DNA of 64,000 nucleotides from Escherichia phage CL1: sequence record OK040806. One strand, given 5' to 3'. Made by a program: the position numbers and the translations under genes. Below, piece by piece: positions 8,478-63,997 of this stretch. The notes under the pieces were generated by a model. The model ran no database searches. It was given only the letters and a program-made list of their open reading frames with translations, and was not told the DNA's origin. Every line of letters starts with the position of its first letter. Positions within the stretch are counted from its first letter, which is position 1.

Positions 8478-8845
8478 AGTGGCTAGAGGAAGCTTTTAAA
8501 AATAATATTGGTGCAATTGTAGTTGGTATTTTTAGTGTTATTGGTATGTATACCACCATGCAAGTCTCGGATGGTAAGCAAGAAGTATCTATCACAACAA
8601 AGTTACAGCAGCTAGATAATTATTCCAAAAGTAATTATTCAGCTATTCGTGATTTACAGTCTGATATGAGGCTGCTTCAGCTAGGGATGGAGAACCAGAA
8701 AGTCCAGTTAGAGAATGTTAAGGGAGAGAACGCAAAACTTACTAAGACTCTTGACAAATTCTCTGATAGTGTGAACAATCTGGCTCAATCAGTATCAGCC
8801 CTCCAAGCTATTACTGAAAAGAACACAAAGAATACTGAAAAGTAA
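8474..8845 (+). CDS. hypothetical membrane-anchored coiled-coil protein
   Basis: 123 aa; N-terminal hydrophobic helix (IGAIVVGIFSVIGMY) then heptad-like region; last gene before terminator. Confidence 0.35.
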   Translation: MKWLEEAFKNNIGAIVVGIFSVIGMYTTMQVSDGKQEVSITTKLQQLDNYSKSNYSAIRDLQSDMRLLQLGMENQKVQLENVKGENAKLTKTLDKFSDSVNNLAQSVSALQAITEKNTKNTEK

Positions 8846-8882: not shown

Positions 8883-9782
8883 TTATTTACCTACTGACAA
8901 AGGCGCTTCAATCTTTCCTGCATGTTGGTAGTTGTTAATACCACCGATAAAGTCACTTGCAGTGAGGTGTTTTAAGTCACTTAAAGTGTTAAGTGGTAGG
9001 CCAATCTCAAAAGTTGGTGCATGGAACTCTTCATTGTTCATCAGTTCATAAACCTGCTTCATATGGTTCTGATAAATCTGAGTATCTCCAAAGACACCTA
9101 TCAAGTACCGTGGAGTGTATCCGGTCATCTTGCAAAGAACTTCCAGAATAAAACCATAAGACGCAATATTAAACGGAAGTCCTAAGAAGGTGTCTACTGA
9201 ACGCTGATACCATTGTAAATCAACTTCACCCTCGTTAGTGATATAAATCTGAAACAGGACATGACAAGGTGCTAAAGCCATTGAGTTTGCTGCAATATCT
9301 GCTGCATTCCAAGCATTAACAAGCATGTAACGGTCTGTGATATCACCCTTCATCTTTGCTACTAAGGTCTCTAGTTGGTCTACAACGCAACCGTTATGAC
9401 CTTCGAAGTTTCTCCACTGAACCCCGTAGATTCTCCCACCTGCATCTTCTAACCAATCTTGTTCAGAAGAATAATTAGAGCTTAACCAACGTTTAAAATC
9501 ATCTGACCAGATAGTCCAACGTTCTCCGTCATTTTCACCCCAAGTACGGTAACGAAGTTCACCCAGCTTATTCTCACCATTCAGGAACCATAAAGCTTCC
9601 CCAATAACTTGCCGCGTAAACACCTGTTTAGAGGTTAAGAGTGGGAAACCAGTTCTCATATCAAAACGAAACTGTGGTGGAGCAAATGCAGAGATAACAT
9701 CTCCAGTTCGTGTAGTACGTAGTTCACCAACGGATAAAACATGGTTCAGGATATTTTTGTAACTCAAATCAGCTTGTGACAT
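8883..9782 (-). CDS. thyA: thymidylate synthase (ThyA family; pyrimidine hydroxymethylase homolog not excluded)
   Basis: 299 aa with RTGxxxxSxF, FPLLTSK, EALWFL, ALAPCH (catalytic Cys) and GLPFNIASY motifs; adjacent to DHFR as in T4 frd-td. Confidence 0.8.
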   Translation of the reverse strand: MSQADLSYKNILNHVLSVGELRTTRTGDVISAFAPPQFRFDMRTGFPLLTSKQVFTRQVIGEALWFLNGENKLGELRYRTWGENDGERWTIWSDDFKRWLSSNYSSEQDWLEDAGGRIYGVQWRNFEGHNGCVVDQLETLVAKMKGDITDRYMLVNAWNAADIAANSMALAPCHVLFQIYITNEGEVDLQWYQRSVDTFLGLPFNIASYGFILEVLCKMTGYTPRYLIGVFGDTQIYQNHMKQVYELMNNEEFHAPTFEIGLPLNTLSDLKHLTASDFIGGINNYQHAGKIEAPLSVGK

Positions 9783-12439: not shown

Positions 12440-12710
12440 CAGATTTTATAGCTTATCTGGCAGATTTTTTATAAGGCTACTGCCATCCTTCCATACCAAA
12501 CCATACAAGACATAGCCATACCCGACCGTACATCACCTCACAACACTTAAAAACCCTTTTTAGAAGACTCTTAAGTGGTGTAAGTCTCATTTTTATGTAG
12601 CTGAGACTAACTACCCATACTATACCGGACCGAACCTCACCCTACCGGACCAGACACTACCATACAACACCTCACCATACCTCATTAAAAGACCCTCTTA
12701 AAGACCTTTT

Positions 12711-12733
12711 AAAAAGGAGCCTCCGAAGAGGCT
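12711..12733 (-). terminator. intrinsic terminator after gene 12745..13185
   Basis: minus-strand AGCCTC-TTCG-GAGGCT stem followed by U-run (plus-strand A5 at 12711-12715). Confidence 0.6.
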
Positions 12734-12744
12734 ACCTAGTCAAC

Positions 12745-13185
12745 TTAGAAAGGTTTTCTACGTTGCTTGTTAATGTTAGCTTTCATAGCAGCTAAATGGT
12801 TTTGCTGTTCAATCAGTCGTGAACGTTCTTGATGGCTAAGTGCCATAGTGTTCACATTCTCAATCGCTTGAGTAGCTTGCTTTAAAGCTCGACCAATCTT
12901 GCCAGACATTTTACGTTTTGCAATAGTTGCTTGATGCTTAGGTTCAACCACACGATAACCAACACCCATTGAAGCAACCAGATAAATCTTCTCTTCTTTA
13001 AGAAGCTTCTCAATAAACTTCTCAAGTCGGTTTAGGCGTGTAAGCGCATAAGCCTTCATTTCATCTTCGTACTTAACAATGTCACCTTGATAAGTTGGCT
13101 TCACAATACCTAAGAAGGTGTCCATCTCAGAATGTGATACAGTGTCACCGTAACTAAACTTTGCTGCTAATGCTTTTGTATTCAT
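12745..13185 (-). CDS. hypothetical protein
   Basis: 146-aa ORF followed by a minus-strand intrinsic terminator. Confidence 0.4.
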   Translation of the reverse strand: MNTKALAAKFSYGDTVSHSEMDTFLGIVKPTYQGDIVKYEDEMKAYALTRLNRLEKFIEKLLKEEKIYLVASMGVGYRVVEPKHQATIAKRKMSGKIGRALKQATQAIENVNTMALSHQERSRLIEQQNHLAAMKANINKQRRKPF

Positions 13186-13187
13186 AA

Positions 13188-13796
<609 letters not shown>

Positions 13797-13820
<24 letters not shown>

Positions 13821-14221
13821 GAACCCTCAACAGAAGACTCTTTAGAAACTTGGTAGATTTTTAACGTGGCTACTACCATCCACCCAGACTTTACTATACC
13901 TCACCAGACCATACCTGACCTGGCCGCGCCTTGCCTTGCCAAACATCACTTAAAAACCCTATGAGATACTTTATCGAGTATAATTTAAAGACTCTTAAGT
14001 GATGTAATCGAATTTTAATGTAGCTCCGATTAACTACCCATACCCTGCTTTACCTTACCGTACCGTACTTTACCCGACCGTACCGGACAATACTTAACCC
14101 TACCTCACCCGACCGGACATCACTTAAAAACCCTTTTAAAAGACTCTTAAGTGATGCTGGTGAGTACCCGTTGGTTTATGCTGCTCAGTATACTCACCAA
14201 ATTTTCTATGTCAACAACTTT
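13797..14221 (-). repeat. ORF-free element Q: two copies of inverted repeat CATCACTTAA...TTAAGTGATG with GGT-rich tracts
   Basis: IR copies 13944-14004 (41-nt loop) and 14118-14156 (19-nt loop); CCGACCGTACC motifs; promoter at 14187-14214 points into it. Confidence 0.5.
14187..14214 (-). promoter_or_regulatory. sigma70-like promoter TTGACA-16-TATACT directed into the ORF-free element downstream of ligase
   Basis: minus-strand TTGACA (plus 14209-14214) and TATACT (plus 14187-14192), 8 bp after the ligase stop. Confidence 0.5.
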
Positions 14222-49263: not shown

Positions 49264-50049
49264 ATGGGTATTGTGAAAATCATCAATGGTGATATCTTTG
49301 CAGCATTTGATAAAGGTAAGTTTGATGTCATCGGTCACGGTTGCAACTGTATGAACTTAATGGGTGCAGGTATCGCTGACAAGATTTCTAAACTTTACCC
49401 AAAAGCATATGAGACTGATACAGAAGTTTATCTGTATGCAGGTGGCATAGGCCACAAGCCCTGTGAGAATTTACTAGGCAATTTCTCTGTAGCACGTTTA
49501 AAACAAGGTCGTATAGCTAACCTTTACACTCAGCTTAAGACTGGTAAAGATGCCCGATACAGTGCTTTAGAGTCATCTTTGAAACAACTTAACAGATACT
49601 GTGAAGTAAATCAGTTGAAGAAAGTTGGCTTGCCTATGATTGGTGCAGGTATCGGTGGGCTAGACCCTCAAGCCGTCACAGTTATCATTAATCAGGTGAT
49701 GAAGAGTGTAGATGTGTATCTGTATGTCTACGAGACAAAGATGTACAACGAGTTACACTCAGGTTGGAAGAACTACTGCGAACCAGAATACTTTGCAGGT
49801 GTAGTAACGTTCACAGACAATACAGTTACCCTCTTCAGACGAAGAAAAGGTAAGATACATCAAAGTAACCCTCCGGTTGAGAAGATGTCTCTAAGTAACG
49901 CTCTAGTTACCCACCTGTCGAAGAGCAATCACAGGATAGCTGTAACATTTGGTAGTGATGCAGATACATATATCTATGCAAGAACTGATGAGGATATCGA
50001 GACGGTCTTCTCTTCACCAGAAGTTACCTTTTTAGGCGCAAAGAACTAA
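49264..50049 (+). CDS. macro-domain-like protein (ADP-ribose binding/processing fold) with C-terminal extension
   Basis: N-terminal INGDIF...DVIGHGCNCMNLMGAGIA and later GLPMIGAGIGGLDP resemble the two Gly-rich macro-domain motifs; ~100-aa unknown extension. Confidence 0.45.
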   Translation: MGIVKIINGDIFAAFDKGKFDVIGHGCNCMNLMGAGIADKISKLYPKAYETDTEVYLYAGGIGHKPCENLLGNFSVARLKQGRIANLYTQLKTGKDARYSALESSLKQLNRYCEVNQLKKVGLPMIGAGIGGLDPQAVTVIINQVMKSVDVYLYVYETKMYNELHSGWKNYCEPEYFAGVVTFTDNTVTLFRRRKGKIHQSNPPVEKMSLSNALVTHLSKSNHRIAVTFGSDADTYIYARTDEDIETVFSSPEVTFLGAKN

Positions 50050-50080
50050 GAAAATCTGTATAATATTCACAATAGACTAA

Positions 50081-50126
50081 GCCTTTCTTATCTGGTAAAT
50101 TTTTTCAGGTAAGGAGGGCTTTTTTT
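50081..50126 (+). terminator. long-stem intrinsic terminator after macro-domain gene
   Basis: GCCTTTCTTATCTG / CAGGTAAGGAGGGC 14-bp stem (three G-U) followed by TTTTTTT. Confidence 0.55.
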
Positions 50127-50320
50127 ATTTCAAGATTGTGCAGGTAGAGTTCTGTAGAGAAATCTGTAGAGAGAATTTTGAACTCCAAAGAGAAAATTCA
50201 TTTTCAAACTGTGCAGGTAATCTCCAAAGAGCTTTTTCATTTTCAAAACGTGCAGACCCCGCTCAGGTCGGGCAAGAAAAATCATTTTAGAATTGTGCAG
50301 GTAGGTGGGTGCAGGTGGGA
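50127..50320. repeat. four direct repeats of ~20 bp (consensus ATTTTCAAANTGTGCAGGTA), two inside tandem 40-bp units
   Basis: copies near 50127, 50199, 50238, 50283 plus GTGGGTGCAGGTGGG; tandem 40-bp units 50181-50220 and 50221-50260. Confidence 0.6.
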
Positions 50321-50479
50321 ATGTCGCCATTTCTCACAAGGCTACCACATCTGGAAATAAAAGTCAACAGAAAAATTTGTAGCGGATTGAAAAATAATTC
50401 TTGATTGTAGTTCTGTTTTGTGGTAGTCGCGCGCACCCGTTTCATTACAATTTTGCAAAAAATATTTTTAAAATTCCTA

Positions 50480-50508
50480 TTGACTCTTTGAGTATGGTTA
50501 TCTAATAT
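50480..50508 (+). promoter_or_regulatory. sigma70-like promoter TTGACT-17-TAATAT heading the small-gene array
   Basis: TTGACT 50480-50485, 17-bp spacer, TAATAT 50503-50508; ~45-nt leader with GGAG SD before ATG 50559. Confidence 0.6.
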
Positions 50509-50558
50509 TTGCATCAGACGGGCAAGCCAGCCCACTTCCTAAACTGGAGAATCTAAAA

Positions 50559-50765
50559 ATGCTTTACAGTCGCGAATTGATGGTTACAACTAACGTTAAC
50601 ACAGGTGTAAAACGTTTCTACATGCAAATCTGCGGCGTATGGTCCAGAATATCAGAAGATGACTATTGCAACTATGTAGGAACGGCTATTAATTCTAATT
50701 GCTATCTGACAAGAAACACTAAGAAATTTACAAGGCAGACAGCGATTTACTACTACGACAAATAA
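50559..50765 (+). CDS. hypothetical small Cys-containing protein (array gene 1)
   Basis: 68 aa; consensus promoter at 50480 and AGGAG-type SD upstream. Confidence 0.4.
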   Translation: MLYSRELMVTTNVNTGVKRFYMQICGVWSRISEDDYCNYVGTAINSNCYLTRNTKKFTRQTAIYYYDK

Positions 50766-50822
50766 AGTACTTTACAGGGGGCTTAAAAGCTGATATCTTA
50801 AGCCCCAGATAAAGAGCTTTAC
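50763..50822 (+). promoter_or_regulatory. cassette A copy 1: TAAAGTACTTTA palindrome, -35 TTTACA, inverted repeat GGGGGCTTAA-N11-TTAAGCCCC enclosing -10 (TATCTT), then ATAAAGAGCTTTAC
   Basis: TTTACA 50771-50776, 17-bp spacer, TATCTT 50794-50799; IR 50777-50806. Confidence 0.5.
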
Positions 50823-50853
50823 TAAATTAACCCTTAAACTAGGAGATTCAAAA

Positions 50854-51234
50854 ATGGCTTATCGTGCACCGAAATTCATCAACAAAGACAACTTCCGCAA
50901 CGCACTGGAGAAGTCACTTGATGAAAAATTTAACGGCAAATTGATTGTTGTTCACGCATTCAATTTTAAGTATGATATTAACGGGAATAAAATCAACCAT
51001 TACACGGCAACCATGTTAGATGGTACGCTATCAAGTGAAAAAGCCGTACTGAATGCACTTGCAGGACGTGGTAAAAACCTGATAAGATGCGATAAGAGAC
51101 GTTATCAGGGTGGCGCATATGGTTATGATGATGCTGTTTATCATCTTGAAAATATGGGCTATTCAGTGGAAAAAGCTGGAGTGTCTCAAATAATCGGCAG
51201 TGATGGTTATGTAACAATCTTCAAAATTAACTAA
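50854..51234 (+). CDS. hypothetical protein (array gene 2)
   Basis: 126 aa; preceded by cassette A and conserved GGAGATTCAAAAATG initiation region. Confidence 0.45.
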   Translation: MAYRAPKFINKDNFRNALEKSLDEKFNGKLIVVHAFNFKYDINGNKINHYTATMLDGTLSSEKAVLNALAGRGKNLIRCDKRRYQGGAYGYDDAVYHLENMGYSVEKAGVSQIIGSDGYVTIFKIN

Positions 51235-51294
51235 TAAAGTACTTTACAAGGGGCTTATAGTTCGATAAAGTAAGCCCCAGATAAAGAGCTTTAC
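51235..51294 (+). promoter_or_regulatory. cassette A copy 2 (GGGGCTTA-N13-TAAGCCCC; -10 TAAAGT)
   Basis: palindrome 51235-51246, TTTACA 51243-51248, TAAAGT 51266-51271, IR 51250-51278. Confidence 0.5.
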
Positions 51295-51322
51295 CACTAA
51301 ATCCTAAATTGGAGATTCAAAA

Positions 51323-51580
51323 ATGGCTATCATCAAAAACGTTGTAATTACTGCAAAGACTCGTGATGACGCTCGCATCATGGCGAAAAAGTTAGGCGGG
51401 AAAGTGGTTGACAACGGAAAACAATCTGCTGTAAGATGGGGCGTGAAGGCTGATAAAAAGTTAACCTTAAAACGCAGTTCAAATAACCTCTTTAAAGGTG
51501 TAAAATCACTCGGTAAAGTGAACGTGTTTACTAAACAAGGTTACAAAATGCACTTATCATTAACTGGCAATTTAATCTGA
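51323..51580 (+). CDS. hypothetical basic protein (array gene 3)
   Basis: 85 aa; cassette A upstream. Confidence 0.45.
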   Translation: MAIIKNVVITAKTRDDARIMAKKLGGKVVDNGKQSAVRWGVKADKKLTLKRSSNNLFKGVKSLGKVNVFTKQGYKMHLSLTGNLI

Positions 51581-51640
51581 TAAAGTACTTTACAAGGGGC
51601 TTATAGTTCGATAAAGTAAGCCCCAGATAAAGAGCTTTAC
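51581..51640 (+). promoter_or_regulatory. cassette A copy 3 (identical core to copy 2)
   Basis: palindrome 51581-51592, TTTACA 51589-51594, TAAAGT 51612-51617, IR 51596-51624. Confidence 0.5.
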
Positions 51641-51669
51641 TAACTAAATCCTAAACTGGAGATTCTAAA

Positions 51670-52182
51670 ATGAAAACTGTAGACGCTACCTTTGAAGTTG
51701 TAAAAGAAAAATTCACCATTATTTATGAAGCTGTCAATTGCTTTGAAGCAAGCCATAATCTTGATAATTGGAAGTTTACAGATGACCATCAAGGCGGCGT
51801 GACGATTAAAAATCCTAACTGTCAGAGTAATGAATTTAAATATGCAATCCCTTTGCATTACAGCCTTAAGCAGCTTTCAAGTGACTATGCAAAACAAGGC
51901 CGTGAGAATCCATCGAAAGAGGCTTACACGAGCTTACAGAAAGAACTAGAAAGGGATTTAGAGGCTTCAGAGTATAACATTGCCGCGAAAGTTGTAGATG
52001 CAAACGGTAGCACGGTTTTAGAGAGTTTTTATATTGGTTATGCTTTCGATTGGTGCTACAGTGACGGCGATGATTTAGATGACAGACTAAAAGAGGAAGT
52101 GAACAACGCAGACGCAGAATCTGAAGTATTAGAACGCTTGGAAGCATTAAAAGATTCAGTGATGAATATCTTTAAGAACTAA
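51670..52182 (+). CDS. hypothetical acidic protein (array gene 4)
   Basis: 170 aa; cassette A upstream. Confidence 0.45.
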   Translation: MKTVDATFEVVKEKFTIIYEAVNCFEASHNLDNWKFTDDHQGGVTIKNPNCQSNEFKYAIPLHYSLKQLSSDYAKQGRENPSKEAYTSLQKELERDLEASEYNIAAKVVDANGSTVLESFYIGYAFDWCYSDGDDLDDRLKEEVNNADAESEVLERLEALKDSVMNIFKN

Positions 52183-52184
52183 AT

Positions 52185-52242
52185 AGATTTCTTTACACGG
52201 GGCTAACAAGCGGATATGATAGCCCCAGATAAAGAGCTTTAC
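52185..52242 (+). promoter_or_regulatory. cassette A copy 4 (variant IR GGGGCTA-N14-TAGCCCC; -10 TATGAT)
   Basis: TTTACA 52192-52197, TATGAT 52215-52220, IR 52199-52226 with compensatory stem change. Confidence 0.5.
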
Positions 52243-52270
52243 TACTAAATCCTAAACTGGAGACTCTAAA

Positions 52271-52567
52271 ATGAAATTATCGAATAAAGTTCGTGAAAAC
52301 CTTAGTAAATTACTCAACAAAATTGATTTTATCGAGACATCAAGAAATAATCATGATGTTATGGAATGGTTGCACGGCAAAATAAAAGGCCGTCGCGTAG
52401 TGATTTGCTTATGGAATAGTTGCAGGGAGTATAAAAAGCCTGTATTGCAAATTAATGTTTATGATGATACTTTTAAAAGTCCTGTAAAGTCTAAAAGCGA
52501 TTTATTAGAATCCTATGAGATAACTGTAAATGGCAAAGTATCACGTAAAGAGGAAACACCATGTTAA
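52271..52567 (+). CDS. hypothetical protein (array gene 5)
   Basis: 98 aa; cassette A variant upstream. Confidence 0.45.
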   Translation: MKLSNKVRENLSKLLNKIDFIETSRNNHDVMEWLHGKIKGRRVVICLWNSCREYKKPVLQINVYDDTFKSPVKSKSDLLESYEITVNGKVSRKEETPC

Positions 52568-52893
52568 TGACTGGTATCACTGCAATCATTGCCATTTTCG
52601 CGCTATATAAGGCATATAAAGCCTATAATCTAGCAAATAAGGCAATCACACAGCAAGTTAGTAATAACCTTGTAGAGAGCTTTCTAGGGCGTTTAAGTGA
52701 TGAGCAAATAAAGCGGCTAGAGATGAGCTTCAGATATAAAGCGAAAACCTATCAGATAAGTGACATCTTCAAAGAGGATTTTCAGCTTGTCGATGATTAT
52801 AACTCACTGATAAATGCTTTAAATATCAGTGACTTAAAAGATTATTACGCTGTAATTGTCCAAGAACTGAACAAACGAAAACAAAACTGTTGA
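52561..52893 (+). CDS. hypothetical membrane-anchored protein (array gene 6)
   Basis: 110 aa; N-terminal TM helix (MLMTGITAIIAIFALY); overlaps previous gene (ATGTTAATG); no cassette of its own. Confidence 0.4.
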   Translation: MLMTGITAIIAIFALYKAYKAYNLANKAITQQVSNNLVESFLGRLSDEQIKRLEMSFRYKAKTYQISDIFKEDFQLVDDYNSLINALNISDLKDYYAVIVQELNKRKQNC

Positions 52894-52945
52894 CACTGAT
52901 TTTTAGATAACCTAAATTACTAATCAACGGGAGGGATGACCTCCC
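52890..52945 (+). promoter_or_regulatory. cassette B copy 1: promoter TTGACA-17-TAAATT plus 5' leader stem-loop GGGAGG-GATGA-CCTCCC
   Basis: TTGACA 52890-52895 (overlaps upstream stop), TAAATT 52913-52918, hairpin 52929-52945, conserved leader to ATG 52980. Confidence 0.55.
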
Positions 52946-52979
52946 ACTAAACAAAGTCCTTAAACTAGGAGATTCAAAA

Positions 52980-53252
52980 ATGTATACTACTAATAACGGT
53001 CGTACTCTAAATGTAACTTTGCGCCACTATGTTAACGGCGTGATGCACTTTGAAGATTTACAAGCTGAACAACATATCTTAGATTGGCAACTTGCAGGAC
53101 TACAAAAAACTGCTACAGGATACGGGAAAAAGATTCCAACTAGTTGGAAAGTATACTATGAAGGGCGTTTGCGCAGAATTTATCAAGATGTATACAGCAA
53201 TAGCGCAACAAGTTACATCATGGTAAAAGGTAAAAAATTACACTTAGTATAA
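52980..53252 (+). CDS. hypothetical protein (array gene 7)
   Basis: 90 aa; cassette B upstream. Confidence 0.45.
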   Translation: MYTTNNGRTLNVTLRHYVNGVMHFEDLQAEQHILDWQLAGLQKTATGYGKKIPTSWKVYYEGRLRRIYQDVYSNSATSYIMVKGKKLHLV

Positions 53253-53309
53253 AGTACTTTACAAGGGGCTTATAGTTCGATAGAGTAAGCCCCAGATAAA
53301 GAGCTTTAC
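53250..53309 (+). promoter_or_regulatory. cassette A copy 5 (-10 TAGAGT)
   Basis: palindrome 53250-53261, TTTACA 53258-53263, TAGAGT 53281-53286, IR 53265-53293. Confidence 0.5.
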
Positions 53310-53338
53310 TACTCAATCCTAAATTGGAGAACTTAAAA

Positions 53339-53743
53339 ATGGCTATTAATAACCGTGAGTTATCAATCTTAAAAGCACGTTTGACCGTTAACCGGATTAA
53401 TGTTATTACGTCATCAGCACCGGACGAAACATTACACAACATTATTGGGAAGATTCAAAGTGTTATCTTAGACGTTGAAAGCGTAAAAAACTCATTGGCT
53501 GACGTTGCAGCAGGTATCACGCTAGACGGTGCACAATATGAAATGGCTGACATGTTAGGCAAATCAAAGGTAATGAATAAAGAGCTTGATTTAAAAATGT
53601 TCCGTTTTGCCGTGAAAGTGTGGCTATCTGTCGAGTATGACGCAAATTTTGCAATCGCTGACTTTTTCGCAACATGGTTGCAACGTAATTTAACAAATTA
53701 TGATTTTCGTGATATCTGTGACGCAATTTACGCAGAACTCTAA
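53339..53743 (+). CDS. hypothetical protein (array gene 8)
   Basis: track start is TTG; ATG at 53339 sits at the conserved distance from the cassette A SD. Confidence 0.45.
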   Translation: MAINNRELSILKARLTVNRINVITSSAPDETLHNIIGKIQSVILDVESVKNSLADVAAGITLDGAQYEMADMLGKSKVMNKELDLKMFRFAVKVWLSVEYDANFAIADFFATWLQRNLTNYDFRDICDAIYAEL

Positions 53744-53752
53744 AAAATTTTA

Positions 53753-53808
53753 TTGACACTGATTTTTAAAACAAGTAAATTACTAATCAACGGGAGGGAT
53801 GACCTCCC
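53753..53808 (+). promoter_or_regulatory. cassette B copy 2
   Basis: TTGACA 53753-53758, TAAATT 53776-53781, hairpin GGGAGG/CCTCCC 53792-53808. Confidence 0.55.
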
Positions 53809-53842
53809 CACTAAGTAAAGTCCTTAAACTAGGAGATTCAAA

Positions 53843-54043
53843 ATGGCTATTATCAACGGTTTAAACATTGAAACTACTCATATCAAAGATATCAAAGTTG
53901 GCGATGTAGTCCTTTCCCACGGCGTAGAAAAAACTGTCACTGCAAAGGATATTAAAGAGGATTCTTTCATGGGTAGGACTCTCTTCGGTGATTCTTATTG
54001 CTTAGGTTATCTTGCAGTTTTAAAAGTTGTCAAAAATAACTGA
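53843..54043 (+). CDS. hypothetical protein (array gene 9)
   Basis: 66 aa; cassette B upstream. Confidence 0.4.
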   Translation: MAIINGLNIETTHIKDIKVGDVVLSHGVEKTVTAKDIKEDSFMGRTLFGDSYCLGYLAVLKVVKNN

Positions 54044-54103
54044 TAAAGTACTTTACAAGGGGCTTATAGTTCGATAAAGTAAGCCCCAGATAAAGAGCTT
54101 TAC
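54044..54103 (+). promoter_or_regulatory. cassette A copy 6 (-10 TAAAGT)
   Basis: palindrome 54044-54055, TTTACA 54052-54057, TAAAGT 54075-54080, IR 54059-54087. Confidence 0.5.
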
Positions 54104-54138
54104 CACTAAATCAAGTCCTTAAACTAGGAGATTCAAAA

Positions 54139-54702
54139 ATGAAATGCTATCACGGAACTACACTCAAAAACTTTGTAAACCTGCTGAATGGTGGCGATAA
54201 GCCTGAAGGTATCTGGAACTGTTCCTACATGGACGATTGTTTCTATGTTTACCCAATGAATAAGGTTATCAAAATGGGATGTCTGGAAGATGAAGAAGAT
54301 TCTTACATCCGTGAACGCTGCATTCAAAGTGCCTTAGAGTCGGGGCTTATTACGGCTGCTTTCCAAATGGAAACGCAGGACGTGATTGTTATTGAAATGG
54401 ATATCCCAGAGGAAGAACTAGAGGACGATTATTCTTGTGACAACATGAGCGAAATTGCCAGCTTTACCGGATACTTTGATAAAAATTGGATTGTTAGCAT
54501 CCACTCAACGAAATTTAGTGCGATGTATGCACCTTTCTTTGTACCTGATACGAAAAACCGCAACTTGGGATATGTTGACGATGATTTGTTGAGTATTGCA
54601 AAAATTGTACAGAATAGCGGTGATAGTTCCGTGTTTTGTGACCTACTGGATAAAATCACGGAAAACCTCACAGAACGCAATTTAAAGGACTTTTTAGGAT
54701 AA
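54139..54702 (+). CDS. hypothetical protein with ADP-ribosyltransferase-like N-terminal motif (array gene 10)
   Basis: 187 aa; N-terminus MKCYHGTTLKNFVNLLNGG resembles the [FY]HGT NAD-binding strand of H-Y-E-class ARTs, Tyr cluster SYMDDCFYVY follows; motif-level only. Confidence 0.35.
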   Translation: MKCYHGTTLKNFVNLLNGGDKPEGIWNCSYMDDCFYVYPMNKVIKMGCLEDEEDSYIRERCIQSALESGLITAAFQMETQDVIVIEMDIPEEELEDDYSCDNMSEIASFTGYFDKNWIVSIHSTKFSAMYAPFFVPDTKNRNLGYVDDDLLSIAKIVQNSGDSSVFCDLLDKITENLTERNLKDFLG

Positions 54703-54765
54703 GCAGTACAAAGACACCAACTTTTAACTTAAGGCCCACACAGGGCCATTTAGAGGGCTTCAAAC

Positions 54766-54999
54766 ATGCTTACAACCGTTTATCTTATCCTTTCTATTTG
54801 TAATGGTCATTCATGTGATTTTAAAGGGCTTGAGGAGTTTACAGGAAGTAAAGAAAATGCCGTTCAGGTCTGTCAGATAGCAAGACAAGACTACCCCGCC
54901 AGTGATGATATACAATGTTACTTTAAGACAGAAGATGAAGAGGGTATCTATTTCGATAGTGTAGACGGGCAATATGAAATTATCATTGAAAAAGACTAG
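54766..54999 (+). CDS. hypothetical protein (array gene 11)
   Basis: 77 aa; hydrophobic N-terminus; no cassette, short hairpin upstream. Confidence 0.35.
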   Translation: MLTTVYLILSICNGHSCDFKGLEEFTGSKENAVQVCQIARQDYPASDDIQCYFKTEDEEGIYFDSVDGQYEIIIEKD

Positions 55000-55053
55000 A
55001 CAAGCCTGATAAAAGTCTGTAAATTGTCAATCAACGGGAGGCGATAACCTCCC
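54997..55053 (+). promoter_or_regulatory. cassette B copy 3 (-35 TAGACA; loop CGATAA)
   Basis: TAGACA 54997-55002, TAAATT 55020-55025, hairpin 55036-55053. Confidence 0.5.
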
Positions 55054-55088
55054 AACTAAACAAAGTCCTTAAACTAGGAGATTCAAAA

Positions 55089-55430
55089 ATGGCTTATGTA
55101 ACCGTAATTACCAATAAAGAAGATTCATCTTGGTCAACTCAAGTAAGCGATAAGATGTCACCTATGCAGTGCCTAAAATACTTTGAGCAATGGAACAAAG
55201 GCGAGGATACCAGCCCCTTTCAAGTGATGCAGATTATCCATACAGATAACGAAGGGAATAAAACTGTTTTGAATAGTGAGTACTATGCAACCAGATTCGA
55301 AACGAGAAGTAAAGCAATGAAGCTCTTACGTGAATCCGGTTATTCTCATATTGCCGCGCTAATCTGGGATGACCTGCTAAAAAATCAGCGTATCAGCTAC
55401 GTAAAACCTGAAAAAATATTCATCAGTTAA
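55089..55430 (+). CDS. hypothetical protein (array gene 12)
   Basis: 113 aa; cassette B upstream. Confidence 0.45.
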   Translation: MAYVTVITNKEDSSWSTQVSDKMSPMQCLKYFEQWNKGEDTSPFQVMQIIHTDNEGNKTVLNSEYYATRFETRSKAMKLLRESGYSHIAALIWDDLLKNQRISYVKPEKIFIS

Positions 55431-55559
55431 TCAATAACTTACAAAAAACTTTTAAAAAAGTGTTGACAATACCCCTTGACATTGGTAACTTTGTTCGAGG
55501 GGGTTTATCTAAAAGGGATTAACTTAAAAGATTCTTTATAGATAAACTTAAAAAATTGC

Positions 55560-55621
55560 TTGCAATCAGATATCAAAACAAGTAAATTACTAATCAACGG
55601 TGAGGGAATGAACTTCCTCAC
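55560..55621 (+). promoter_or_regulatory. cassette B copy 4 (-35 TTGCAA; compensatory stem GTGAGGGA/TTCCTCAC)
   Basis: TTGCAA 55560-55565, TAAATT 55583-55588, hairpin 55600-55621; extra TTGACA boxes at 55463 and 55476. Confidence 0.5.
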
Positions 55622-55653
55622 TAAATAAAGTCCTTAAACTAGGAGATTCAAAA

Positions 55654-56184
55654 ATGAACAAATTTCAAGCTATCAACTACATTCGCTCAAATGCTGTAAT
55701 GTCTAAGCCTGTTAAAGATACCTATGAATTTCGCTGCAATGGGGTACACTTTGCAACCATTACCAAATCAGAAAACGGGGTTTATTACATTCATCGCCGT
55801 AATGTTTATACTGTTGTAGTCTCTCACTTTATGAAAGCTGTAGCGGAATTATTACCGTTATTCTTAGAGATTTACTTGGATGAGTGTAAAAACGTTCATA
55901 GCCACGTTAAAAACCTTTTAAATAGCTATAAAATGGCTTATGAACGTTCAATCAAGTCCTTAAACAAGTTCTATAAAGCCCCTGTAAATACTGTTTCAAT
56001 GGCCTACGCTGCAAATGGTGAAAGAGTAAGACTATCCGATGTGGAAGATATCGAGCTTTACGACCATCGCCCTAACGGTTACTCTCAGACCCTCGGTGAA
56101 GGTTTAACGTTCAATATCAAGAACTTAGAAAAAACTTTAAAAGATATTGAAAAAGATATTGACGAGACAATCAAAAATCTGTAA
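55654..56184 (+). CDS. hypothetical protein (array gene 13)
   Basis: 176 aa; cassette B upstream after a 223-bp spacer. Confidence 0.45.
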   Translation: MNKFQAINYIRSNAVMSKPVKDTYEFRCNGVHFATITKSENGVYYIHRRNVYTVVVSHFMKAVAELLPLFLEIYLDECKNVHSHVKNLLNSYKMAYERSIKSLNKFYKAPVNTVSMAYAANGERVRLSDVEDIELYDHRPNGYSQTLGEGLTFNIKNLEKTLKDIEKDIDETIKNL

Positions 56185-56214
56185 ATTATCAATCAACGGG
56201 AGGGATAACCTCCC
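56159..56214 (+). promoter_or_regulatory. cassette B copy 5 (-35 TTGACG, inside 3' end of upstream gene)
   Basis: TTGACG 56159-56164, TAAATT 56182-56187, hairpin GGGAGG-GATAA-CCTCCC 56198-56214. Confidence 0.5.
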
Positions 56215-56249
56215 TACTAAGCAAAGTCCTTAAACTAGGAGTTATCAAG

Positions 56250-56522
56250 ATGGAACACGTCGAACTGACCACACTTTTACAAATTGCAACCGACAAAGAG
56301 GATGTAGCATTATTCCACCGCATCGAAAGTGATTTATTCAATGGTGAAATCATTAAAGAATCTTACGAAGTTGTCGGATTCAAAGACGGTAAAGCGTTCG
56401 GATTCTTTGACCTCGACAAAGGCAAAGCGGTTACAAAATATGATGTTTTATCTTGTGAGATTCTTACAAAATACAACGAAAAAAAGGCTTGCAACATACG
56501 CCAACATGCAGTAAATTACTAA
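56250..56522 (+). CDS. hypothetical protein (array gene 14)
   Basis: 90 aa; cassette B promoter embedded in 3' end of previous gene. Confidence 0.45.
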   Translation: MEHVELTTLLQIATDKEDVALFHRIESDLFNGEIIKESYEVVGFKDGKAFGFFDLDKGKAVTKYDVLSCEILTKYNEKKACNIRQHAVNY

Positions 56523-56544
56523 TCAACGGGAGGGATAACCTCCC
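56489..56544 (+). promoter_or_regulatory. cassette B copy 6 (-35 TTGCAA, inside 3' end of upstream gene)
   Basis: TTGCAA 56489-56494, TAAATT 56512-56517, hairpin 56528-56544. Confidence 0.5.
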
Positions 56545-56579
56545 TACTGAATAAAGTCCTTAAACTAGGAGATTCTAAA

Positions 56580-56828
56580 ATGGCAACTATCCGCGCAACT
56601 ATCAATGCTTATGGCTGTTATACTCTGGACGTTAAATTTGATATTGGTGGAACTGATGAATGCTTTTCATTAGTGAAGACAGTTATCAAGCAAGTTATCC
56701 CAGATTATAACCCTACTGATGACTTCTGGAAAGATGCTGTAAAAGAGGCATTAAACGATGAGCATCACTATCATTACTGGGGTGACTTGATTGTCTCCCT
56801 GTACTACAATAAACAAGGTTACAACTAA
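56580..56828 (+). CDS. hypothetical protein (array gene 15)
   Basis: 82 aa; cassette B upstream; followed by terminator. Confidence 0.45.
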   Translation: MATIRATINAYGCYTLDVKFDIGGTDECFSLVKTVIKQVIPDYNPTDDFWKDAVKEALNDEHHYHYWGDLIVSLYYNKQGYN

Positions 56829-56838
56829 TCGACGCAGC

Positions 56839-56888
56839 GGGGCTAAATAGCCCCAGATACCTTTACAGCCCCTTAAATGGGCTTTTTT
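56839..56888 (+). terminator. array-terminal hairpin pair: GGGGCT-AAAT-AGCCCC then intrinsic terminator
   Basis: hairpin 56839-56854; second stem AGCCC-loop-GGGCT 56867-56883 followed by TTTTTT. Confidence 0.6.
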
Positions 56889-58470
56889 ACGTCTTATTAA
56901 ATCCTTTCCCTTTCCTTTCCAGAATCTTACTAGACCTTAAAAGCAATAACTCTATAGTCTACTCTATAGCCTTTTATCAAATCAACTTAAATATAAGCCC
57001 ATAACCCGAAAGGGAAGGGCAACCATTTAAACGCTCTATAAAGCCCTATAACAGCCTTATCAACCTAACTTAAGGGATTGCATTACTCCACGCTTAAAAG
57101 CTCTTTATAAAGCTTCTCAGAGCCTTAAAAGAATCTTATAAGGGTGTAAGCTTTATCATCTCGTTAGTATCTTGTGAATAACTAAAAAGGGCTTGTTAGT
57201 GTCTTAAAAGTATGTTATAGGGGCTATAAAGTTGCTTAAAAGTTGCTATAAAGTTACGTAAATGCTAGCCCCCTTAACATTTTCTTAACAAATTTTTAAC
57301 AATCCCTACATAGTTATGCTTTTAAGGCACTTGTTAACAACTTGTTAGCCCCTTGTTAAATCTCTGTTAAGACCACGTAAAAGCCTTGTAAGAGTCTTTG
57401 ACATAGCCTTAAAAGCTCCTGTAAAGCCCTATAAAGAGCTTTCTATATAGTTGGGGTGCAATTACTAGGGAGAGGCTTAAAAGAGCTTACAAAGAGCTAT
57501 AGAGAGCTTTTAAGAGGGCTATTTAAAGGGTCACTAAGAGGGAAAGGGAACTATAGACCAAGAGATAGTGACCATGTTAATAGCTTGTTAAAAAGATTAA
57601 ACACTTGTTAGGAACTTGTTAATTATCTTAACAAAATAACTCTTAAAAATTAACTTGTTAGCTCTTGTTAGTCATCTGTTAAGACTCTGTAAAGCCTACG
57701 TATCAACTGTTAAAAAACTGTTAAGCTCTTGTTAGTTCTGTTAAGAATCTGTTAAGACCTCTGAAGAGATGTTAAGAAGATGTAGCAACTGTTAAGAGAT
57801 TGTTAATGATATTTTAAAATTTTGCAAAGGGGATGTTACAGGGATGTTAAGGGCTACCAAGCAGATATATATCTTCTACAGATATTTTTGAGTTCCTTCA
57901 AAGACCCTAAAAAATGACTTGATAGCTCTATTTTATAAAAATTTTAAAATTCTGAATAATTACCTAGACAGTCTTTTAAAAATACAGGTAGAAACAGGCT
58001 TATAAGATACCTTGTTAGTACCGTGTTAGACCTTGTGAGATAAGGTCTGTAAAGATATTCCTGTTAAGTTTGCTAAAACAGTCTATATAGAGGCTTAGTA
58101 TTTCCTAGTGAACACCTATAGAGAGTGTCATAGCTGACATAGAGATTAAGAGGTGTATAGGAGCTTCTAAGAGGGTATAGAGGGATGGTTAAGGTGATTG
58201 TATAGGTTGTTAAGAAGGCTTGTTAGAAGAGTGTTTAAAGGGCTTGTTAGAGGGTTATTTAGAAGGCTTATACAGAGGGGCTATTAAGACCACTAGATAG
58301 TGACTAAGATACTATATAGTACTATATAACTATATAGAGAGTAAGATTAAGAAGGTTGTTAAGAAGGGTAGATATTTTATTCACATATGATGGTGACCCA
58401 GAGGTTGGGACAACCGATGAAATTTTATAAAAATTAAAAAGCCCCCAATTAAGGAGGCTCTTAAGATATT
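56889..58470. repeat. 1.6-kb ORF-free region dense in short degenerate repeats
   Basis: no ORF of 60 aa or more on either strand; >30 copies of YTGTTAR often phased ~11 bp (57330-57830); CTTAAAAG/CTATAAAG family (56930-57300); ACTATATA x3 (58308-58340); lies between convergent blocks. Confidence 0.7.
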
Positions 58471-63161: not shown

Positions 63162-63997
63162 TATGCCTCCCCTGCTGGGTTAACTGTAACTGTTGCCGCA
63201 TTAGATGTTACAGAGCCACCCGCACCAGTCACTACGCAAGTGTAGCTTCCTGCATCAGCAGCAGTTGCACCTTCTTTGGTGTAAGTTGCAGTCGTTGCGT
63301 CTGGGATGTTTTCCTCACCCTTCTTCCACTGGTAACCTGTCGCACCTGTTGCCACAACGTTGAGTGTCAATGTCTCACCTTCAGTGATTTCTTGATTAGT
63401 TGGCTGTTGAGTGATTACCGGAAGTGCTTTAACAGTTACTGTTGCAGGGATAGAAGTAACGGAACCACCTGCACCTGTTACAACGCAAGTATATGAACCT
63501 GCATCTGCTGGTAGTGCGCCAGACTTGCTATAAGTAGCGTTTGTAGCTGAAGGAATATTAGAGCCATCTTTCTTCCACTGATAGCCCGTTGCACCTGTGG
63601 CAGTCACTTCCAAGCTAATGTTGCCACCCTCGTTGATGGTCTGGCTAGAAGGTTGCTTGGTAATAACAGGTAGTGCGTTAACAGTAACTGTTGCTGCATC
63701 TGAGGTGACACTTGTCCCACCCTCTCCAGACACAACGCAAGTGTATGAGCCAGCATCAGAAGGAGCTACCGACTGTTTTGTGTAAGTTGCAGAAGTGGCA
63801 CTTGAGATATCCTCACCATCCTTCTTCCATTGATACCCAGTGGCATTAGTTGCGAGAACACTTAGGGTAAGTGCTCCACCTTCATTGACTGTTTGGTTTG
63901 TTGGCTGCTGAGTAATTACTGGTGGCTTAATGGCATCCTTCAACTTAGCATTCAACATTGAGAACGGCTTAACTCTTGCCAACCATTCACAATACAC
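63161..63997 (-). CDS. Ig-like domain repeat protein (Hoc-like decoration/adhesin candidate); 5' end may lie beyond the window
   Basis: three ~90-aa tandem repeats each containing TGATGYQWKK...DAGSYTCVV (I-set-type pattern); track start is GTG 3 nt from window edge. Confidence 0.5.
   Translation of the reverse strand: MYCEWLARVKPFSMLNAKLKDAIKPPVITQQPTNQTVNEGGALTLSVLATNATGYQWKKDGEDISSATSATYTKQSVAPSDAGSYTCVVSGEGGTSVTSDAATVTVNALPVITKQPSSQTINEGGNISLEVTATGATGYQWKKDGSNIPSATNATYSKSGALPADAGSYTCVVTGAGGSVTSIPATVTVKALPVITQQPTNQEITEGETLTLNVVATGATGYQWKKGEENIPDATTATYTKEGATAADAGSYTCVVTGAGGSVTSNAATVTVNPAGEA

Follow-up and report, generated by a model that had tools for sequence, protein, structure and literature searches.

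The window considered here is a stretch of 64,000 nucleotides (nt) from Escherichia phage CL1 (sequence record OK040806). It carries on its plus strand a cluster of small early open reading frames (ORFs) between which a composite of promoter, stem-loop and leader, referred to as cassette B, is repeated. The 4.1 kb around the cassette B repeats are 99.7% identical to Escherichia phage C600M2 and match 245 phage records, mostly Felix O1-like phages with E. coli, Salmonella, Shigella and Citrobacter hosts. C600M2 is classified in the genus Felixounavirus of the subfamily Ounavirinae and the window was assigned likewise. The cluster lies 3' of a macro-domain gene (49264-50049) and its terminator. 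Cassettes of type B and of a sister type, A, are confined to 50.5-56.6 kb of the window, and one of them precedes nearly every gene of the cluster, the exceptions in the window being ORFs 52561-52893 and 54766-54999. Of ten ORFs tested downstream of cassettes, none has a Pfam match and all match solely PHROGs of 'unknown function'. No tRNA gene was detected by ARAGORN anywhere in the window. In phage Felix O1, the transcripts of ORFs 13, 16 and 20-22 were found by reverse transcription-polymerase chain reaction to peak 5 min after infection (PMC3185647), and ORFs 16 and 20-22 belong to the region of the cassettes.

The pattern AATCAACGG has exactly six matches in the window, at 52922, 53785, 55029, 55592, 56191 and 56521, against 0.26 expected by chance, and none of 100 shuffles reached six. 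The leader AAGTCCTTAAACTAGGAG is found seven times exactly and once with three mismatches, against 0.09 expected. These counts bear out the proposal of a sequence-only reading of the window that six units made of a -35 box, a 17-nt spacer, TAAATT, a hairpin and a leader are repeated. The six copies, with their Shine-Dalgarno (SD) sequences, are the following.

B1, 52890-52979, plus strand: -35 box TTGACA (52890-52895), -10 box TAAATT (52913-52918), hairpin GGGAGG-GATGA-CCTCCC (52929-52945), SD GGAG (52968-52971), ATG at 52980; the -35 box overlaps the stop codon of ORF 52561-52893 and the downstream gene is an ORFan of 90 amino acids.

B2, 53753-53842, plus strand: -35 box TTGACA (53753-53758), -10 box TAAATT (53776-53781), hairpin GGGAGG-GATGA-CCTCCC (53792-53808), SD GGAG (53832-53835), ATG at 53843; the downstream gene is an ORFan of 66 amino acids.

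B3, 54997-55088, plus strand: -35 box TAGACA (54997-55002), -10 box TAAATT (55020-55025), hairpin GGGAGG-CGATAA-CCTCCC (55036-55053), SD at 55077-55080, ATG at 55089; the -35 box overlaps the stop codon of ORF 54766-54999.

B4, 55560-55653, plus strand: -35 box TTGCAA (55560-55565), -10 box TAAATT (55583-55588), hairpin GGTGAGGGA-ATGAAC-TTCCTCACT (55599-55622), SD at 55642-55645, ATG at 55654.

B5, 56159-56249, plus strand: -35 box TTGACG (56159-56164), -10 box TAAATT (56182-56187), hairpin GGGAGG-GATAA-CCTCCC (56198-56214), SD at 56238-56241, ATG at 56250; the -35 box lies within ORF 55654-56184 and the -10 box overlaps its stop codon.

B6, 56489-56579, plus strand: -35 box TTGCAA (56489-56494), -10 box TAAATT (56512-56517), hairpin GGGAGG-GATAA-CCTCCC (56528-56544), SD at 56568-56571, ATG at 56580; both promoter boxes lie within ORF 56250-56522.

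The -35 hexamer is thus TTGACA in two copies, TTGCAA in two, and TAGACA or TTGACG in one each, and the spacer between it and TAAATT measures 17 nt in all six. AT content is 68-84% in the 25 nt 5' of the -35 box, compared with 61% in the window as a whole. The first G of the stem lies exactly 10 nt past TAAATT in every copy. The sequence of this 10-nt block, first described as shared by the copies, is ACTAATCAAC in four of them; it reads GTCAATCAAC and ATCAATCAAC in the other two. The block of the B copies ends in TCAAC, a motif that adjoins the G-run in all listed Felixounavirus instances but two, which read TCAACAGGG. The stems and loops are as first described: GGGAGG/CCTCCC in five copies, with loops GATGA (twice), GATAA (twice) and CGATAA, and in the sixth, B4, GGTGAGGGA/TTCCTCACT (GGUGAGGGA/UUCCUCACU in RNA) with the loop ATGAAC. 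The B4 hairpin has 9 base pairs (bp), two of them G·U, and its stem is re-registered: the 5' arm has an inserted U, and the 3' arm extends into the conserved flank, from which it takes ACT. Beyond the hairpin, the leader is 34-37 nt long and almost invariant up to the ATG, and every copy has the SD sequence AGGAG or TGGAG 8-9 nt 5' of the ATG. A seventh, diverged copy provides the first promoter of the early cluster; in relatives, the same promoter is followed by an ordinary GGGGAGGG/CCTTCCCC hairpin.

B0, 50480-50558, plus strand: TTGACT-17-TAATAT, then TTGCATCAGAC, hairpin GGGC-AAGCCA-GCCC (50520-50533) starting 11 nt past the -10 box, leader CCTAAACTGGAG, ATG at 50559.

The consensus promoter claimed for cassette B holds. 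Four of the six copies pass a consensus promoter scan, and in about 20 genomes the orthologous sites retain both hexamers and their spacing with two unrelated spacer sequences. The ortholog of the B2 site carries a promoter annotation in phage AYO145A. A sigma-70-type promoter, in which hexamers and 17-nt spacing are kept while the spacer sequence varies among sites and genomes, is therefore supported as the likely identity of this part of the cassette. The ten bases that follow TAAATT are A-C-T-A-A-T-C-A-A-C, and the usual start, 7-8 nt past the hexamer, would fall on the CA of TCAAC. By this promoter geometry, the stem would begin 1-3 unpaired nt from the predicted 5' end of the cassette B mRNA.

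All six leaders form the hairpin when folded, as the first reading had anticipated. Folding energies are -15 to -18 kcal/mol for whole B leaders, with z between -1.8 and -3.4 relative to shuffles, and about -11.5 to -13 kcal/mol for the stem-loops by themselves; with an additional 50 nt from upstream, the hairpin is left stand-alone and no larger structure appears. A pattern anchored on the flanks (TCAAC ... CCTTAAACTAGGAG) and unbiased as to the stem retrieved 39 loci from IMG/VR. With GenBank loci added, the set comprised 125 B-type instances and 38 different hairpin sequences. Every one of the 38 folds (-7.5 to -16.6 kcal/mol), and one or more G·U pairs are present in half of them. Stability is greater on the sense strand in 24 variants and on the opposite strand in 13, the sense strand being favored because a G·U pair turns into an A·C mismatch on its complement. 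The commonest variant, with 43 instances, folds at -15.2 kcal/mol on the sense strand and at -11.8 kcal/mol on the opposite one, where an A·C mismatch takes the place of the sense G·U pair. In 30 of 36 cases, the observed variant is also more stable than random mutants bearing equally many edits (means of -12.4 and -10.2 kcal/mol, Wilcoxon p about 1e-6), in a comparison that uses a crude mutation model and variants that are not phylogenetically independent.

Compensatory changes had been claimed from the six copies. Within the window they come down to B4, where the stem is re-registered rather than simply exchanging one pair for another; real covariation is found once relatives are added. Felixounavirus stems follow two main designs, GGGAGG/CCUCCC and GGGGAGGG/CCUUCCCC, whose sequence is nearly fixed, so that true covariation within the genus is thin. 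Across genera the picture is richer. Stems of Citrobacter phage Michonne (Mooglevirus) are GGGGAGG-GAAA-CUUCCCC, GGGGC-AAGAUAAA-GCCCC and GGGA-AACA-UCCC, and those of Escherichia phage SUSP2 (Suspvirus) are GGGC-AAGCAA-GCCC and GGGGAAG-AAAUCA-CUUCCCC. They occupy the same site, directly 3' of TCAAC, TCAGAC or ATCGA and 9-11 nt past the -10 box, and among the pair changes are A-U to C-G and G·U to A-U. When 129 hits are aligned to a covariance model, pairing holds in 98.2% of cells, a figure to be read with the alignment having been fitted to the structure; its counts of changes on both sides are inflated by the mixing of short and long stem registers and were disregarded. Structure rather than sequence is conserved, the stems at this position being different in three genera and at 50520. 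The conserved feature is, on this comparative evidence, a G-first hairpin on the sense strand that is selected as a structure. The earlier claim of a functional RNA structure is in keeping with these G·U wobbles, retained stability and cross-genus covariation.

Six copies of cassette A are interspersed with cassette B.

Cassette A, 50771-54138, plus strand: six copies of TTTACA-17-TAAAGT-like promoters, with TTTACA starting at 50771, 51243, 51589, 52192, 53258 and 54052.

Cassette A contains a three-tier interrupted hairpin of about 20 bp that spans the spacer and the -10 box, with inner stem GGGGCTTA/TAAGCCCC (-24 to -27 kcal/mol, z = -3 to -4.7). The length and internal loops of this hairpin recall an RNase III site. 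Its inner stem covaries in Mooglevirus, Suspvirus and Kolesnikvirus, a -10-like hexamer being always retained in the loop, and the stems differ between genera by sense-strand wobbles (GGGGCUUA/UAAGCCCC versus GGUGUUUA/UAAGCACC and GGGGUUUA/UAAGCCCC). A-type stems too look like sense-strand RNA structures, which would be possible solely in read-through transcripts. In Erwinia phage SunLIRen (Kolesnikvirus), homologous cassettes likewise have their hairpin around the -10 box, for example TTGACA-N18-[GAGGGG-T TAAAAT-CCCCTC]-ATCAAC, with the predicted start just 3' of the hairpin.

The 3' leader is common to cassettes A and B. It exists in two types, CCTAAAYTGGAG and CCTTAAACTAGGAG, which differ by a matched U and A indel, and every combination of cassette and leader type is found. 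Nearly all cassette leaders of the four genera possess a CCU or UCC motif 6-9 nt 5' of the SD sequence that can pair with it. The pairing motif lies about 22-9 nt upstream of each ATG (e.g. 52957-52970), also in relatives L043, L044 and L045, and takes the forms UCCU-UAAACU-AGGA and UCC-UAAAYU-GGA, or CCUU-AUA-AAGG in Kolesnikvirus. This leader hairpin is weak (-1 to -4.6 kcal/mol), yet the G residues of the SD sequence are predicted to be paired in all six window copies.

The modular character of the region emerges when about 20 genomes are ordered by cassette and downstream gene. Relatives differ by whole gene modules whose junctions fall inside cassettes. The 330-nt MEHVEL module (window 56250-56522) is absent from relatives L026 and L041, where the gene of B6 is joined to the promoter half of B5. 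L011 has neither the MNKF nor the MEHVEL module, with spacing otherwise preserved, and L028 is devoid of the MAIING module, with the result that a B cassette stands before a gene elsewhere preceded by an A cassette. Extra modules are MYTKTQL in phage wV8, MFCAGDK in L029 and MLYSREL in the window and L011. Cassettes A and B exchange in front of the same gene in this set of genomes, and stem designs as well as leader types have been reshuffled between orthologous sites. Cassettes delimit single-gene modules, the gains and losses of which begin and end inside cassettes. The first reading missed this: B is one of two interchangeable intergenic cassettes with a common leader that bound single-gene modules. 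Degraded half-cassettes were also observed in SUSP2 (8504-8551 and 8894-9094) and in L037, some keeping the 3' arm and leader without the 5' arm and others the hairpin with a truncated leader.

An arrangement of this kind has been described in T4-like phages under the name of promoter-early stem-loop, or PeSL (Arbiol et al. 2010, PMC2839356; Comeau et al. 2014, PMC4122927). PeSLs are repeated intergenic composites in which an AT-rich region, a sigma-70 promoter, a G(n)-loop-C(n) stem-loop with G·T pairs, an SD sequence and an ATG follow each other. Five subclasses were distinguished by the position of the stem-loop, one of them 'downstream of the -10' (PMC2839356, PMC4122927). PeSLs are clustered among ORFans of hyperplastic regions, have been linked to indels and mini-circles, and are known from RB49/phi1, T4/PST and KVP40/nt-1 (PMC2839356, PMC4122927). 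In RB49, the stem-loop of a PeSL cut expression of downstream lacZ about as much as rrnB T1 did, and a mini-circle cross-over was located in the stem-loop's loop (PMC2839356).

The Ounavirinae cassettes resemble PeSLs in their intergenic AT-rich stretch, their -35/N17/-10 promoter, their G-run/C-run stem with G·U pairs and the SD sequence and ATG of a small ORFan. They also resemble them in their setting, a variable early region of genes of unknown function where indels and replacements end in cassettes, and in the varying position of the stem-loop, which lies over or between the promoter boxes in cassette A and 3' of the -10 box in cassette B. The half-cassettes of relatives parallel the '1/2 PeSLs' of T4-like phages. 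Differences exist as well. The cassettes have no sequence similarity to the published PeSL consensus; the stem of cassette B lies 3' of the predicted start, hence inside its own mRNA; and its leader is likewise uniform as far as the ATG. The phage that carries the cassettes is a Felixounavirus and not T4-like, which is a taxonomic limit of the original description rather than a mechanistic feature. In RB49, promoter strength, terminator activity and mini-circles are experimental findings. At the level of sequence, every trait that defines a PeSL can be recognised in the Ounavirinae cassettes, the taxonomic frame excepted. Cassette B is on this showing not a new kind of element and would be a PeSL-type cassette for the expression and shuffling of early genes in Ounavirinae.

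Stem-loops at the 5' end stabilise the mRNAs that start with the T7 phi10 and T4 gene 32 leaders. The same is known of stem-loops in the 5' untranslated regions of ompA and papA; 5' secondary structure has a stabilising effect because both RppH and RNase E need a single-stranded 5' terminus (reviewed in PMC3997798). Like the ompA and papA structures, the cassette B hairpin is short, stable and predicted to lie a few nt from the 5' end, in hosts (E. coli or Salmonella) whose RppH and RNase E require a single-stranded 5' end. Unlike them, it recurs upstream of most genes in the cluster rather than serving a single gene, and related cassettes carry the hairpin upstream of the start site.

We consider it probable that these parts form one package, a PeSL-like modular early-gene cassette with a 5'-protective hairpin that doubles as a barrier to read-through and as a recombination site. 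The cassette would comprise an AT-rich stretch, a host sigma-70 promoter of the form [-35]-17-TAAATT and a start region ending in TCAAC; directly after it would come a G-run/C-run hairpin of 6-9 bp, the standardised leader and the ATG of a small gene of unknown function. Host RNA polymerase would start at the CA of TCAAC and produce monocistronic early mRNAs beginning at about pppA-A-C, with the hairpin directly after. The hairpin would then shield the mRNA from decay that depends on the 5' end, because RppH and RNase E both need that end single-stranded. In RNA reading through from upstream cassettes, the same hairpin would sit between cistrons and might act as a barrier, a block to 3' exonucleases or an attenuator. 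Roughly 65 nt of identical cassette sequence would supply the homology for recombination events that delete, insert or swap modules. The most likely role of the B hairpin itself would be that of a 5'-terminal protective structure on its own mRNA, doubling as an intercistronic barrier.

Several points weigh against this reading. The sequence-only reading had placed the stem-loop near the 5' end of the transcript, and while this agrees with the 1-3 nt predicted for cassette B, the hairpin of cassette A and of Kolesnikvirus encloses the -10 box and lies upstream of its own start site. A 5'-leader structure is consequently not the whole explanation, and a hairpin function common to all cassettes would have to be exerted in read-through RNA or in DNA and not at a 5' end. 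The searchable literature holds no start-site, 3'-end or half-life data for Felix O1-like phages, so the 5'-terminal position is a prediction. The constant spacing between -10 box and stem may be inherited rather than selected. Since the stem is nearly fixed within Felixounavirus, most of the 125 instances are not independent, and the covariation is drawn from a handful of stem designs. Lastly, a test of concerted evolution, in which within-genome concordance was compared with shuffling inside ortholog groups, gave no significant homogenisation of stem design (p = 0.07) or leader type (p = 0.08) within genomes.

Most of the remaining weight goes to the explanation that the hairpin acts only on read-through transcripts, as an attenuator or terminator, a role proposed and in part tested for PeSL stem-loops, or as a block to 3'-5' exonucleases by which the upstream cistron would be stabilised, its place near its own 5' end being incidental. 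This is a serious possibility, if one on the unlikely side. It alone fits all hairpin positions in the subfamily, after the start in B and over the -10 box in A and Kolesnikvirus; every cassette is placed between a stop codon and the next SD sequence, and the lacZ effect of the RB49 stem-loop points the same way (PMC2839356). The placement of the hairpin varies relative to the promoter, as in PeSLs, and a barrier or attenuator role in read-through RNA may apply to B in any case. As a terminator, however, the B hairpin is poorly equipped: its stem is short (6-9 bp) and is followed by ACTAAAYAAAG instead of a T tract. The terminator scan calls none of the six B hairpins and does find the terminator that closes the early gene cluster:

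56867-56889, plus strand: intrinsic terminator AGCCCC-TTAAATG-GGGCT followed by TTTTTT.

This is the sole intergenic plus-strand match of a hairpin and T tract in the early cluster, the other plus-strand match (54518-54532) falling within ORF 54139-54702. The reading of the B hairpins as intrinsic terminators was accordingly rejected. A promoter immediately 5' of the hairpin would moreover restore transcription of the downstream gene whatever the hairpin did to incoming polymerases.

A role in DNA would dispense with RNA function altogether, the inverted repeat serving as a cross-over hot spot or single-stranded hairpin that promotes cassette exchange and mini-circles. The RB49 cross-over in a PeSL loop (PMC2839356), the deletion junctions inside cassettes and the shuffling of stem and leader variants among sites would all suit it. 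Homology without a hairpin would nevertheless suffice for recombination, hairpin stability is kept beyond neutral expectation, and the G·U pairs make the two strands unequal, the bottom-strand A·C mismatch pointing to a sense-strand and most simply an RNA structure; a purely DNA-borne function is very unlikely in our view. Still harder to credit is an element read by its sequence, be it GGAGG/CCUCC acting in ribosome loading or an operator or RNA tag through which a phage regulator shuts off early genes. Its arms are almost invariant within Felixounavirus, the loops resemble rAUrA and the same tag stands 5' of many genes. However, stem and loop lengths vary, the stems of Mooglevirus, Suspvirus and position 50520 are devoid of GGAGG/CCUCC, and their loops (GAAA, AAGCAA, AAGAUAAA, AACA) are unrelated. 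An operator for a dimeric protein was ruled out by variable arm and loop lengths and by the G·U asymmetry, which spoils the dyad symmetry that a dimeric DNA-binding protein requires. The arms had first been likened to an SD sequence paired with an anti-SD sequence. This pairing is not conserved, homologous cassettes having GGGC/GCCC, GGGGC/GCCCC and GGGA/UCCC stems without GGAGG, and the resemblance is best seen as incidental since the GGAGG/CCUCC sequence itself is not conserved. An SD/anti-SD switch fails on the same relatives and on in silico removal of the 5' arm, after which CCUCC does not pair consistently or reproducibly with the real SD sequence; SD accessibility is set in silico by the small UCCU/AGGA hairpin, with or without the 5' stem. 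A variant of the protective reading, in which the 5'-terminal hairpin and the SD-pairing CCU motif together form a common RNA tag that a factor of phage or host origin reads so as to stabilise the full set of accessory early genes jointly and shut it off later, with mini-circle, integron-like exchange that is independent of the T4-like PeSLs, strikes us as unlikely.

Other known elements were considered for the B hairpin and set aside. RNase III sites need a double-stranded stem of some two helical turns (roughly 20 bp). The B stems have 6-9 bp and stand alone in longer folds, the interrupted stem of about 20 bp being found in cassette A instead. A boxB/nut-like antitermination signal, suggested by the GAUAA and GAUGA loops, is contradicted by the absence of a boxA, by repetition before most genes of the cluster and by loops that are unconserved across genera. 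A search of Rfam gave no relevant match at E<=1 in 50000-58000; the lone hit, mir-708 at 57423-57523 (E = 0.03), is far below the gathering score and was dismissed as chance.

The repeats themselves had already been noticed. Direct repeats of 39 bp and 57 bp were recorded in the genome of Felix O1 with no interpretation as promoter, hairpin or cassette, and both are omitted from its list of putative promoters (PMC3185647). The 39-bp repeat, TTGACACTGGTTTTTAGATAGATTAAATTACACATCAAC, corresponds to the promoter half of cassette B and the 57-bp repeat to cassette A. Features DR_1 to DR_9 of the GenBank record of phage wV8 (EU877232) are the same cassette sequences, annotated as repeats, and go unmentioned in the wV8 paper. 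No paper in the literature searched links Felix O1-like phages with PeSLs or describes the cassettes, an earlier description in the phiEa21-4 paper (PMC2663227) being possible.

Further elements were observed in and around the cluster. Between ORF 55089-55430 and cassette B4, a conserved non-coding element (55431-55545) contains overlapping TTGACA hexamers (TTGACAATACCCCTTGACA), a hairpin CCCCUUGACA/UGUUCGAGGGG around a -10-like TAACTT and then a hairpin of about 16 bp, UUUAUCUAAAAGGGAUU...AUUCUUUAUAGAUAA. It is near-identical in Michonne and SUSP2, its conservation being too high to reveal covariation, and could represent a strong promoter with a small RNA or regulatory site. Upstream of the cluster, a gap of about 350 nt separates the terminator of the macro-domain gene (about 50080-50125) from the first early promoter (50480); within it, three or four repeats containing TGTGCAGGT are found at 50130-50330 with a spacing of about 40 nt. 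Between the plus-strand early cluster and the minus-strand genes lies a stretch of about 1.5 kb without convincing ORFs (56890-58430), in which motifs of the TGTTAAGAC type are repeated at 57354-57768. A scan of the whole window also detected five 67-nt copies with a short ACC/TACC periodicity (12494-14147) and three tandem copies of about 206 nt, some 250 nt apart (63216-63922).

The cassette concept was already published for T4-like phages, and what is new is its occurrence in Ounavirinae. Repeats that genome papers had catalogued without interpretation would now be explained, and an annotation rule for early promoters and module borders becomes available for more than 240 sequenced Felix O1-like genomes. 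Phage engineering could draw on compact, naturally insulated expression cassettes, and the A-type and B-type placements of the hairpin offer a natural test case for intercistronic and 5' hairpin effects on phage mRNA. More generally, the PeSL principle, by which accessory early genes are housed in standard cassettes of promoter, hairpin and ribosome-binding site that double as recombination sites, would extend to therapeutic and diagnostic phages that belong to an unrelated subfamily (Felix O1, wV8 and relatives). The presence of PeSL-type cassettes in Ounavirinae suggests that this way of organising early genes is of convergent or widespread use.

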